Both the position numbers and the translations under genes were made by a program. Of a DNA stretch of 64,000 nucleotides, positions 1 to 48,138 are shown one piece after another. Each line of letters opens with the position of its first letter. Position 1 is the first letter of the stretch. The DNA is from Escherichia phage 215Ecol030PP, in sequence record PP328843.1, one strand, 5' to 3'. A model generated the notes under the pieces. The model made no database searches. It was not told the origin of the DNA and worked only from the letters and a program-made list of their open reading frames with translations.

Positions 1-3130
<3,130 letters not shown>

Positions 3131-3158
3131 TATTAAAGCATATTAAAGAGGATTAAAA

Positions 3159-5138
3159 ATGACTTTATTATCTCCGGGCATTGAGCTCAAAGAAACTACG
3201 GTTCAAAGCACCGTGGTTAATAACTCTACTGGTACAGCAGCTTTGGCCGGTAAATTCCAGTGGGGTCCTGCTTTTCAGATTAAACAGGTTACAAATGAAG
3301 TAGATTTAGTTAATACTTTTGGTCAACCAACCGCTGAAACTGCTGACTATTTTATGTCTGCGATGAATTTCTTGCAGTACGGAAATGACTTACGAGTAGT
3401 TCGTGCTGTTGATAGAGATACCGCTAAAAACTCATCTCCGATTGCCGGTAATATTGAATACACAATTTCTACCCCAGGTAGTAACTACGCAGTTGGAGAT
3501 AAAATCACGGTCAAATATGTTTCAGATGCTATTGAAACTGAAGGTAAAATTACTGAAGTAGACGTAGATGGAAAAATTAAGAAAATTAATATTCCTACTG
3601 CAAAAATTATCGCTAAAGCTAAAGAAGTCGGTGAATATCCAGCACTAGGTTCTAACTGGACTGCGGAAATTTCTTCATCTTCCTCTGGTTTAGCTGCAGT
3701 AATAACTCTTGGAAAAATTATTACTGATTCTGGTATTTTATTAGCTGAAATTGAAAATGCTGAAGCTGCTATGACAGAGGTTGGCTTTCAAGCAAATCTC
3801 GAAAAATACGGAATTCCAGGAGTAGTAGCGCTTTATCCAGGCGAATTAGGCGATAAAATTGAAATTGAAATCGTATCTAAAGCTGACTATGCAAAAGGAG
3901 CTTCTGCATTACTCCCAATTTATCCAGGTGGTGGTACTCGTGCATCTACTGCTAAAGCAGTGTTTGGATATGGACCACAAACTGATTCACAGTACGCTAT
4001 TATAGTTCGTCGTAATGATGCTATTGTTCAAAGCGTTGTTCTTTCAACTAAGCGTGGTGAAAAAGATATTTACGATAGTAACATCTATATCGATGACTTT
4101 TTCGCAAAAGGTGGTTCAGAATATATTTTTGCAACTGCACAAAACTGGCCAGAAGGCTTCTCTGGAATTTTAACTCTGTCTGGTGGATTATCATCAAATG
4201 CTGAAGTAACAGCAGGAGATTTGATGGAAGCTTGGGACTTCTTTGCTGACCGTGAATCCGTTGATGTTCAATTGTTTATTGCGGGTTCTTGTGCCGGTGA
4301 ATCTTTAGAAACAGCATCTACTGTCCAAAAACACGTCGTTTCAATTGGGGATGCTCGCCAAGATTGCTTAGTATTGTGCTCTCCTCCGCGTGAAACTGTA
4401 GTTGGAATTCCTGTAACTCGTGCTGTTGATAACTTAGTCAATTGGAGAACCGCAACAGGTTCATACACTGATAATAACTTTAATATCAGTTCAACCTACG
4501 CAGCAATTGATGGTAACTACAAGTATCAGTATGACAAATATAATGATGTGAATCGTTGGGTTCCATTAGCAGCTGATATTGCTGGTTTATGCGCAAGAAC
4601 TGATAACGTATCTCAGACTTGGATGTCTCCAGCTGGTTATAATCGTGGCCAAATTTTGAACGTTATTAAACTGGCTATTGAAACTCGCCAAGCTCAGCGC
4701 GACCGTTTATACCAAGAAGCTATCAACCCGGTAACTGGTACAGGTGGTGATGGTTACGTATTGTATGGTGATAAAACAGCTACTTCTGTTCCTTCTCCGT
4801 TTGATCGTATTAACGTTCGTCGTCTGTTTAATATGTTGAAAACGAATATCGGACGTAGTTCAAAATATCGTTTGTTCGAATTAAACAACGCGTTTACTCG
4901 TTCATCATTCCGCACAGAAACTGCCCAGTACTTACAGGGAATTAAAGCTCTCGGTGGAATTTATGAATATCGTGTAGTTTGCGATACAACAAATAACACT
5001 CCGTCAGTAATTGATAGAAATGAGTTTGTTGCAACATTCTACATCCAACCTGCGCGCAGTATAAATTATATCCAACTTAACTTCGTTGCGACTGCTACTG
5101 GTGCAGATTTCGATGAGTTAACTGGTCTTGCAGGTTAA
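3159..5138 (+). CDS. 18: contractile tail sheath protein gp18
   Basis: 659 aa ORF preceded by TATAAATA late promoter; T4 gp18 size and position. Confidence 0.95.
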   Translation: MTLLSPGIELKETTVQSTVVNNSTGTAALAGKFQWGPAFQIKQVTNEVDLVNTFGQPTAETADYFMSAMNFLQYGNDLRVVRAVDRDTAKNSSPIAGNIEYTISTPGSNYAVGDKITVKYVSDAIETEGKITEVDVDGKIKKINIPTAKIIAKAKEVGEYPALGSNWTAEISSSSSGLAAVITLGKIITDSGILLAEIENAEAAMTEVGFQANLEKYGIPGVVALYPGELGDKIEIEIVSKADYAKGASALLPIYPGGGTRASTAKAVFGYGPQTDSQYAIIVRRNDAIVQSVVLSTKRGEKDIYDSNIYIDDFFAKGGSEYIFATAQNWPEGFSGILTLSGGLSSNAEVTAGDLMEAWDFFADRESVDVQLFIAGSCAGESLETASTVQKHVVSIGDARQDCLVLCSPPRETVVGIPVTRAVDNLVNWRTATGSYTDNNFNISSTYAAIDGNYKYQYDKYNDVNRWVPLAADIAGLCARTDNVSQTWMSPAGYNRGQILNVIKLAIETRQAQRDRLYQEAINPVTGTGGDGYVLYGDKTATSVPSPFDRINVRRLFNMLKTNIGRSSKYRLFELNNAFTRSSFRTETAQYLQGIKALGGIYEYRVVCDTTNNTPSVIDRNEFVATFYIQPARSINYIQLNFVATATGADFDELTGLAG

Positions 5139-5154
5139 TACGGTGCATTCTAAA

Positions 5155-14109: not shown

Positions 14110-15528
14110 TTATGGATAGGTATAGATGATACCAGTTTCTAAAGCAGTTTTATGAATGATGTATCCATTACGCGATTCTTGGACATCAACTTCTGGATAA
14201 TCTTTCATCATCTTCTGAAGAGTGTAACGATGCAGGTAGTATTTACTATCTGGATCTTCAGTTTTCCAATCTTTACCTTCTTCAGTCATTTTTTGGATTT
14301 CATCCATAACCCACCAACCGCACCAGATGTAAGCTGAGCTACGATGTGGAAGAGGATGAACATAAGGTAATTCACCTTCTGGTTCCGGAGCAGCTTTATC
14401 AGTTACCTGAACTTGACCTTCTGCTGTAATAGTTTTGCTATCATAATCAGCAGCAGTAACAGTTGCAGTAACTTCAATAGTTTGACTTCCAACAGATGAT
14501 GTATCAACGGTGTATACATTAGTTGACCCTTCTACAGGAGAAGAATCTTTCTTCCATGAATACGTAATTTGCGCTTCTTCCGGAGCATCCGTAACGTTAG
14601 CAGTAAATGTAGCCGAAGCATCTTGCTGAACATTAATAGAAGGAGGAGTCAATGTAACCTGTGGATTCATTGTCTTCTTATTAACTGTCAATGATACTTC
14701 ATTAGAAGTAACTTCCTTTTCATTATAATTTTCTGCAGTTACTTGGGCTACGCATTTAATTCTTTTTACTCCACTTGTAGTTGGAGTATAGTTAAATGTA
14801 GAGTTAGTTTCTCCACCAACTTGTGAATCATCTACATACCACTGATACGTAGCAGACGCTCCGTCAGGTTGAGAAGCTAATGCAGCAGTAAATTGAACCG
14901 GGGTTCCAATTACTCCAGCAGCAGGACTAGCAGGAGTTACTGCCAAGGTAGTTGTCTGTGTCTTTTTATTAACTGTCAATGATACTTCATTGGAAGTAAC
15001 GCTCAGTGCATCATAATCTGTCGCAGTTACTTGAGCTACACACTTAATTTTTTTAACTCCGCTTGTAGTAGGAGTATAATTGAATGTAGCAGAAGTTGCT
15101 TCGCTCACAGGAGAACCGTCAACGTACCATTGATACGTAGCAGATGCGCCCGATGGCTGCGAAGCTAAAGCAGCAGTAAATTCAACAGCTGTTCCGATTA
15201 CTCCTTCTGGAGGACTATTAGGAGTTACAGCTAAGGTAGTTGTCTGTGTCTTATTTTGAACTGTGATAGTTGTACTAATTTCAGCTGTTTCAGCTTCAGC
15301 TTCTGGAACTGTATTTGTTGCAACCACTTTAATAGTCTTTTGACCAGCAGGTCCTTTTAATACATAATTAAAGGTTGCTTCAGCTCCATCCTGTGGAACA
15401 TTATCTACACTCCAAGCATAGGTAATAGTTCCACCTTCAGTTTGACCACTGGGTGCAGCAGTAAACTGCTTGGTTTCATCAATAACCCCCGTTGGTGTTT
15501 TAGGAGTTATATCAACTGTAAAAGTCAT
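14110..15528 (-). CDS. hoc: highly immunogenic outer capsid protein Hoc, four Ig-like domains plus capsid-binding C-terminal domain
   Basis: 472 aa; C-terminal YIWCGWWVMDEIQKMTEEGKDWK... capsid-binding domain; two adjacent diverged 96-aa Ig-like units. Confidence 0.92.
   Translation of the reverse strand: MTFTVDITPKTPTGVIDETKQFTAAPSGQTEGGTITYAWSVDNVPQDGAEATFNYVLKGPAGQKTIKVVATNTVPEAEAETAEISTTITVQNKTQTTTLAVTPNSPPEGVIGTAVEFTAALASQPSGASATYQWYVDGSPVSEATSATFNYTPTTSGVKKIKCVAQVTATDYDALSVTSNEVSLTVNKKTQTTTLAVTPASPAAGVIGTPVQFTAALASQPDGASATYQWYVDDSQVGGETNSTFNYTPTTSGVKRIKCVAQVTAENYNEKEVTSNEVSLTVNKKTMNPQVTLTPPSINVQQDASATFTANVTDAPEEAQITYSWKKDSSPVEGSTNVYTVDTSSVGSQTIEVTATVTAADYDSKTITAEGQVQVTDKAAPEPEGELPYVHPLPHRSSAYIWCGWWVMDEIQKMTEEGKDWKTEDPDSKYYLHRYTLQKMMKDYPEVDVQESRNGYIIHKTALETGIIYTYP
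14677..15252 (-). repeat. tandem diverged duplication of a 288-bp Ig-like domain unit within hoc
   Basis: Hoc aa 93-188 and 189-284 both read KTQTTTLAVTP...TYQWYVD...EVSLTVNK; DNA about 80 percent identical. Confidence 0.8.
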
Positions 15529-46482: not shown

Positions 46483-46794
46483 TTACACCGCCATTTTTCC
46501 TTTCAAGACACCATGGGACTGATAATCTTTGAGAACGAAATCTTTAGGCCTGAGTTTAAGAATGTATTCCAATTGTTCTTTAGTAGAAAGATAGCGGAAT
46601 TTATAAGGCAATCCGCCTATTACCAGTTCACAAAGCTCTTTAGGTTCACGACGCAAAATTTCTTTACATTGTTCCACGTGATTCATATAGATATGAGTAT
46701 TACCACCAGAAAATATCAAATCTCCTGGAATAAGATTACACATCTTAGCTACAATATGAACTAACGCAGCATATGATGCAATGTTGAATGGAAG
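46483..46794 (-). CDS. td: thymidylate synthase, exon 2
   Basis: Begins CTT CCA TTC AAC (LPFN...) right after intron-terminal G; 103 codons. Confidence 0.88.
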   Translation of the reverse strand, partial: LPFNIASYAALVHIVAKMCNLIPGDLIFSGGNTHIYMNHVEQCKEILRREPKELCELVIGGLPYKFRYLSTKEQLEYILKLRPKDFVLKDYQSHGVLKGKMAV

Positions 46795-47056
46795 CATTAT
46801 GTTCAGATAAGGTCGTTAATCTTATCCCGGAATTATATCCAGCTGCATGTCACCATGCAGAGCAGACTATATCTCCAACTTGTTAAAGCAAGTTGTCTAT
46901 CGTTTCGAGTCACTTGACCCTACTCCCTAAAGGGATAGTCGTTAGGCATTTAGGTAGAACCAAAGTCCTACAATTTAGCACGGGATTGTCTACTAGAGAG
47001 GTTCCCCGTTTAGATAGATTACAAGTATAAGTCACCTTATACTCAGGCCTCAATTA
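46795..47056 (-). other. group I self-splicing intron in td, 262 nt, no endonuclease ORF
   Basis: Starts UAAUUGAGGCCUGAGUAUAAGG... right after exon-1 GGU and ends ...CUGAACAUAAUG, as recalled for the T4 td intron; only a 16-nt loop where T4 carries I-TevI. Confidence 0.8.
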
Positions 47057-47746
47057 ACCCAAGAAAACATCTACTGAGCGTTGATACCACTGCAAATCCA
47101 AATAGCCATTACGCACATTAAACTGATAGAACATATGACAAGGCGGTAATGCCATATATTTAAGTTCAGCTGGATTCCATGCAGAAACAATTTGACGCCT
47201 ATCATTTGGCAATTTTTTAATACGATCAATAACTTCTACAATTTGGTCTACACCGCCAAAATCACGCCATTGTTTTCCATAAATTGGACCAAGTTCACCG
47301 CTATGGTATCCTAAATCTTTTGCTTGATTTTCGTAATTTTCATCCCAGACTGTTTTGCCTTGAATTAATGAATCATGCTGAATTTGGTCTACACCGCCAA
47401 AATCACGCCATTGTTTTCCATAAATTGGACCAAGTTCACCGCTATGGTATCCTAAATCTTTTGCTTGATTTTCGTAATTTTCATCCCAGACTGTTTTGCC
47501 TTGAATTAATGAATCATGCTGAATTAATCGTAAATCATTTACGTTAGTACTTCCTGATAAGAACCAAAGTAGCTCAGCAATGCAAGCTTTCCAAGCGAGC
47601 TTCTTAGTTGTTACCGCAGGAAAACCTTTAGTTAAATCCCAGCGTAATTTAGTACCGAACAAAGCAATTGTTCCTGTGCCTGTTCGGTCATCGGTTTCAT
47701 AGCCATTTTCAAAAATGTCTTTAATTAAATCTTGGTATTGTTTCAT
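47057..47746 (-). CDS. td: thymidylate synthase, exon 1, carrying an in-frame 47-codon tandem duplication
   Basis: 230 codons; IQHDSLIQGKTVWDENYENQAKDLGYHSGELGPIYGKQWRDFGGVDQ occurs twice in tandem. Confidence 0.88.
47241..47522 (-). repeat. exact 141-bp tandem duplication (2 copies) inside td exon 1
   Basis: Copy 1 at 47241-47381 and copy 2 at 47382-47522 read identical by eye; short AATT-type microhomology at the junction. Confidence 0.85.
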
Positions 47747-47790
47747 TTAGTACCTTATATAAATTATAATACATTTTATGAAGCTAATAA

Positions 47791-48138
47791 TCAATACGGT
47801 TTAGCATCAAATTTTCTTTCGATTTCAGGAGTGAAATATAATTCTTTACCGCGTTTGGAAAAGCGACCAATAATATGATAATTATTCTCATCAAACGTAA
47901 TATTACCAATATCCATAGCTTTCAACCAAATATCGATATTTCTATCCAGCTTTATGTCAAAATTCCAATACGGAGAACTATTACCGAAAATACTGCAAGC
48001 AGATTCAGTGAAACAACTGCTATAAATCTTGTCTTTAGGAACTACTAATTGATAGACACCTTTAATAAACTGAGGACCCTGCCACTTTGGCTGTTTCGCG
48101 TCTTCTTCTAATAGAATAGGGTAATAATTAAAGTTCAT
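47791..48138 (-). CDS. hypothetical protein inserted between frd and td
   Basis: ORF track begins at GTG 48150; ATG at 48138 gives 115 aa (MNFNYYPILLEEDAKQPK...). Confidence 0.55.
   Translation of the reverse strand: MNFNYYPILLEEDAKQPKWQGPQFIKGVYQLVVPKDKIYSSCFTESACSIFGNSSPYWNFDIKLDRNIDIWLKAMDIGNITFDENNYHIIGRFSKRGKELYFTPEIERKFDAKPY

Follow-up and report, generated by a model that had tools for sequence, protein, structure and literature searches.

The exact 141-bp tandem repeat in td exon 1 of Escherichia phage 215Ecol030PP is probably an untrimmed assembler overlap

In sequence record PP328843.1 of Escherichia phage 215Ecol030PP, the first exon of the thymidylate synthase gene td contains the same 141-bp segment twice, head to tail. 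We analysed a 64,000-nucleotide stretch of this record, hereafter called the window, and conclude that the extra copy is most probably an untrimmed k-mer end overlap of the MEGAHIT assembler, absent from the phage DNA. This explanation leads because 141 bp is exactly the default maximum k-mer of MEGAHIT; we infer both the identity of the assembler and the rotation or joining step that would have brought the copies together. A sequence-only reading of the same DNA had proposed a recent biological or laboratory event, which is probably wrong given that 141 is the maximum k of MEGAHIT. The option which it had listed last, an assembly artefact, is now the leading one.

The window belongs to a T4-like phage (Tequatrovirus) and shares 95-98% identity with RB3 and phages related to it. 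Over a stretch of 22 kb, many Tequatrovirus genomes match it at 95-96% identity; in the td region, the identity with RB3 and with PST is 97.8%. Positions 1-5139 match RB3 90,832-95,970 with 97.4% identity, and this stretch of RB3 encodes gp15, the terminase subunits gp16 and gp17, and gp18. The offset by which window position 1 corresponds to RB3 90,832 was considered as a sign that the record had been rotated to the T4 convention, and was set aside as unusable owing to upstream indels. A T4-like metagenome contig of 167,438 bp (OIWM01000017.1, positions 127550-128853) has in common with the window an exact 50-mer of the td-frd intergenic region (47750-47799). It was the single JGI/ENA metagenome match for this 50-mer, which was absent from IMG/VR and from the GTDB genomes. 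The contig is a close relative with SNPs near the 50-mer, and the piece that was compared ends before the repeat. Searches for proteins identical to the products of exon 1, NrdA and Frd found none recorded, and E. coli genomes and plasmids likewise yielded no match.

The td gene is composed of two exons separated by a group I intron devoid of the I-TevI open reading frame (Table 1). The intron matches Rfam family RF00028 at 47066-46843 with 65.5 bits, above the gathering score of 50. The sequences at the splice junctions are GGGT/TAATTGAGG and ACATAATG/CTTCC, and the peptide formed at the exon junction, VFLG/LPFNIASY, is the same as in the T4 thymidylate synthase (TS). With respect to phage MLP2, the gene is colinear apart from the extra 141 bp and an intron P6 region shorter by 58 nt. 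Apart from the repeat, td is thus an undamaged, ordinary T4-type gene with an ORF-less group I intron. Within this intron, the sequence GTAGGAC-TTTG-GTTCTAC could close P6a with a tetraloop. At the td intron site, many relatives, RB3 and PST among them, have I-TevI.

Table 1. Positions of the td exons and intron, of the repeat and of the Hoc-like ORF in the window
Feature	Position	Strand	Remarks
td exon 1	47746..47057	minus	690 nt, 230 codons; 549 nt, 183 codons in relatives
td group I intron	47056..46795	minus	262 nt, without I-TevI ORF
td exon 2	46794..46483	minus	103 codons plus stop codon at 46485-46483
Repeat copy 1	47240..47380		downstream in coding sense; codons 122-168 of the 333-aa Td; identical to copy 2
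Repeat copy 2	47381..47521		upstream in coding sense; codons 75-121; identical to copy 1
AATT, 4-bp continuation of the repeat	47522..47525		
Hoc-like ORF	14110-15528	minus	472 aa

The spliced td product has 333 amino acids, and 286 once one of the two copies is deleted. The peptide IQHDSLIQGKTVWDENYENQAKDLGYHSGELGPIYGKQWRDFGGVDQ occurs twice in the longer product, at residues 75-121 and 122-168. When this product was compared with the PDB by phmmer, residues 1-122 aligned with residues 1-122 of 1TIS and residues 123-333 with residues 76-286 of the same entry (E = 8.9e-218). The spliced translation and this colinearity with 1TIS both agree with the earlier claim that 47 codons are added in frame to exon 1, giving 333 instead of 286 amino acids. 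Homologues of the td product carry the PF00303 domain. On the basis of whole-enzyme homology, including the catalytic cysteine (PPCH) and the four phosphate-binding arginines, the encoded protein is assigned to the ThyA-type thymidylate synthases (PF00303) of the T4 td type. Residues R21, R183/R184, R223 and C203 are invariant in the Td homologue alignment, in which the homologues are forced onto the second copy of the repeat.

Concerning the repeat itself, a repeat search and a direct string comparison both showed that the two 141-bp copies are 100% identical. TRF reported a single array at 47240-47525 with a period of 141, 2.0 copies, 100% matches, no indels and a score of 572. The match ends at 47239 on the left side and at 47526 on the right side. 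The unit begins with the tetranucleotide AATT, which recurs directly after copy 2; the match is thereby 4 bp longer than 141 bp, so that the phase of the unit can be shifted by 0-4 bp without loss of identity. The two identical copies recognized by the sequence-only reading were thus recovered, and the phase which it gave them (starts at 47241 and 47382) is equally valid. Its zero divergence and junction microhomology were likewise found, as the 100% identity over 141 bp and the 4-bp AATT extension.

The novel junction lies between 47380 and 47381 and reads GAATCATGCTG/AATTTGGTCTACA, without any scar between the head-to-tail copies. The junction 24-mer, GAATCATGCTGAATTTGGTCTACA, has one occurrence within the window. 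An exact repeat of 141 bp is beyond the reach of chance, and it is the sole high-identity tandem repeat of the 64-kb window. The only other array in the window was observed at 14671-15264, with a period of 288 and 79% identity, inside the Hoc-like ORF. The latter is about 96 aa longer than T4 Hoc, which we take to be a protein of 376 aa with Ig-like repeats and a conserved C-terminus, and the 288-bp array may be read as one extra Ig-like repeat. This array is a real and old duplication, unlike the td repeat with its zero divergence.

The length of the td repeat has precedents in the assembly literature. The k-list of MEGAHIT runs 21, 29, 39, 59, 79, 99, 119 and 141, and contig end overlaps are maxK long for both MEGAHIT and metaSPAdes (COBRA paper, PMC10914622). 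In the case of circular molecules, MEGAHIT contigs with the prefix k141_ have 141-bp identical ends, and a flag=3 MEGAHIT contig of 499 bp closes to a 358-bp circle (bioRxiv 10.1101/2023.06.07.544120). An exact, adjacent 141-bp "insert" was described in a MEGAHIT assembly, and a search of the FASTQ files yielded zero supporting reads (PMC11572364). Similarly, phage genomes assembled with SPAdes carry a 127-bp repeat, equal to k, which is routinely removed (PMC7372960). The period of the td repeat, 141, is the last k of the default MEGAHIT list.

The genomes of T4-like phages are packaged by a headful mechanism and are circularly permuted; therefore, short reads of such genomes assemble into a closed path. 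For the phage considered here, the circularly permuted genome would have given a closed de Bruijn path, and MEGAHIT, with its final k of 141, would have written this path as a linear contig that ends with a second copy of its first 141 bases. Alternatively, two contigs broken at a branch of the graph would have had a 141-mer in common. Rotation to a conventional start, wrapping of the circle or joining of the contigs, if performed without trimming, would then have brought the two copies next to each other, head to tail, inside the sequence. The cut point would have fallen in td exon 1 by chance.

Since 141 equals 47×3, such a repeat is in frame wherever it is placed in a gene, and the in-frame property therefore carries no information. 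In a mostly coding genome, it will usually land inside a gene. Immediately to the left of the repeat, the base at 47239 gives the codon GTA (Val), compared with ATA (Ile) in most relatives. T4-like Td proteins are commonly dimorphic for Val and Ile at this residue (30 clusters with Val and 93 with Ile). The dimorphism fits a graph branch between co-occurring strains but could be due to chance, and lends weak support to the variant in which two contigs were joined; polymorphic sites are frequent in td.

Two points stand against an artefact. First and foremost, an extension of at least 4 bp arises in 3.1% of random cuts (lag 141, de-duplicated window); the AATT extension would be due to chance under an artefact and would represent microhomology under a real event. 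Second, a real duplication private to this isolate would likewise be missing from every database.

Independent occurrences of the junction were searched for in several collections. A junction-only 48-mer gave no match by megablast in 50,697 phage records; this 48-mer has 22 and 26 bases on the two sides of the junction, flanks so short that a single-copy gene cannot seed a megablast match. The junction 24-mer had no match in IMG/VR, in the JGI metagenome contigs or in the GTDB genome contigs. When a 181-bp query over the junction was used, every phage record among the matches listed aligned in two pieces spanning 145 bp, which to judge from the alignments is the pattern of a single copy. At the protein level, the 333-aa sequence was compared with a collection of 5.8 billion clusters, and only proteins of 286 or 287 aa were found among the best 120 matches. 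In the same 5.8-billion-cluster collection, a 126-aa query covering the repeat region gave 27 clusters of 121-208 aa, none of them of 230 or 333 aa. A literature search on td duplications in T4 and on the stability of T4 tandem duplications returned nothing relevant.

The main alternative to an assembly artefact is a real tandem duplication, in which slippage or illegitimate recombination between AATT tetranucleotides located 141 bp apart would very recently have copied codons 75-121. We regard this event as unlikely, in spite of several features that it would account for. The 4-bp microhomology at the junction, which a random cut yields 3.1% of the time, speaks for it with a likelihood ratio of perhaps 15-20-fold, and the head-to-tail arrangement with a scar-free junction is what such an event would leave. 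T4 is able to generate duplications at short homologies. Since td is otherwise intact, a real duplication would have to be recent. Furthermore, td is dispensable for the growth of T4 on thyA+ hosts; if the altered Td were inactive, the phage would rely on the ThyA of its host.

Against a real duplication, the coincidence of its length with the MEGAHIT kmax is given a chance of roughly one in several hundred to one in 1000 for an event of arbitrary length, whereas an overlap left by MEGAHIT has this length by construction. In addition, neither the junction nor a Td of 230 or 333 aa was found in any other genome, contig or protein in the collections searched and among the protein matches listed. 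T4 also recombines efficiently between direct repeats of about this size, so an unselected 141-bp repeat should vanish quickly and should rarely be the consensus. Finally, an adjacent insert of identical length and devoid of reads is documented in a MEGAHIT assembly (PMC11572364).

The position of the repeat within the enzyme bears on what a real duplication would mean. In E. coli TS, the phosphate of dUMP is bound by Arg21, Arg166, Arg126' and Arg127' (PMC6514825). The equivalents in the 333-aa product (R21, R183/R184 and R223) are located outside the repeat, four out of four. The arginine of the LGPIYGKQWR segment had been taken to bind the phosphate; the offset between the two proteins (query 148 = E. 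coli TS 86) makes it the equivalent of E. coli TS Arg99, and this assignment was abandoned. By the same E. coli TS offsets, the repeat includes the equivalent of Tyr94. It presumably also includes the Trp80/Trp83 region, when TVWDENY is compared with IWDEW, which we take to be the E. coli motif. Thus, if the duplication were real, the phosphate-binding arginines and the catalytic cysteine (PPCH) would stay in single copy, and the Tyr94 equivalent and the Trp80/83-type segment would be doubled.

In a real duplication, the 47 added residues might either inactivate the enzyme or form a loop close to the site at which other thymidylate synthases have an insertion. The chain of a tandem repeat can follow the native fold and release the 47 extra residues anywhere within the unit. 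TS of L. casei (316 aa) gives one continuous alignment with the 333-aa product (3-284 against 5-279), and TS of E. coli (264 aa) splits into two stretches on the same product. These alignments hint that the added length is situated where the TS family tolerates an insertion. With respect to E. coli TS, the L. casei enzyme presumably has an insertion of about 50 residues in the same part of the fold, the small domain. A fixed, in-frame duplication of 47 codons and of zero age in the TS active-site region, with a hybrid copy that could adopt the native fold and leave the surplus as a loop, nevertheless appears rather improbable to us. If true, it would offer a snapshot of how domain-sized insertions begin in the thymidylate synthase family.

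Involvement of I-TevI was also considered and rejected: the intron is without an endonuclease ORF, and the cleavage site of I-TevI, placed 23-25 nt upstream of the intron insertion point, is separated from the closer end of the repeat by about 160 bp.

A tandem repeat becomes a cycle in a de Bruijn graph, and its copy number is then beyond what the assembler can resolve. A junction present in a subpopulation or in a few reads, through minority variants or chimeric reads, and traversed once over a single-copy consensus genome would be compatible with the uniqueness of the junction, yet it gives no reason for a period of exactly 141, real junction reads allowing any period, and we hold it to be extremely improbable.

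If the extra copy is the assembly artefact that we favour, td should be annotated as a normal, intron-containing thymidylate synthase gene with a 286-aa product, and 141 bp should be removed from the record. More generally, exact tandem repeats having the k-mer length of an assembler (141, 127, 99, 77 or 55 bp) should be suspected before any biological reading is given to them. If real, the repeat would be of modest interest as a newly arisen in-frame duplication in a conserved enzyme, and could serve to investigate how TS tolerates insertions and how stable short direct repeats are in T4-like phages.

Comparison with known systems places the repeat as follows. The de-duplicated 286-aa product is nearly identical to T4 Td (1TIS). 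The intron insertion site and the 5' and 3' splice-site sequences are the same as in T4 td, and the intron of the window matches RF00028; the difference lies in exon 1, which in the window has the extra 141 bp. Phage MLP2 has an ORF-less td intron as well, 58 nt longer than the 262-nt intron of the window.

Among microhomology-mediated duplications of the T-even phages, the classical rII duplications resemble the td repeat in their head-to-tail copies and in the few bases of homology at the junction. However, most of them are much longer; they also arise under selection and readily segregate, whereas the td repeat is without evident selection and its length coincides with an assembler parameter. 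The insertion of L. casei TS is similar, on alignment coordinates, in that about 50 extra residues are present with respect to E. coli TS and the alignment is obtained in a single stretch; its placement in the same part of the fold is presumed from the L. casei numbering. In contrast to the td repeat, which duplicates active-site residues next to it, the L. casei insertion is old and has a diverged sequence of its own.

The end overlap of de Bruijn assemblers (141 bp for MEGAHIT, 127 bp for SPAdes) has in common with the td repeat zero divergence, a length equal to the largest k and a genome that assembles as a circle. It differs in two respects: the td copies adjoin in the interior of the sequence instead of standing at its two ends, so that an extra step is needed, and the match continues 4 bp beyond 141. 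The td repeat nevertheless resembles this documented assembler signature most closely, and not a biological system, and is best regarded as probably not real.
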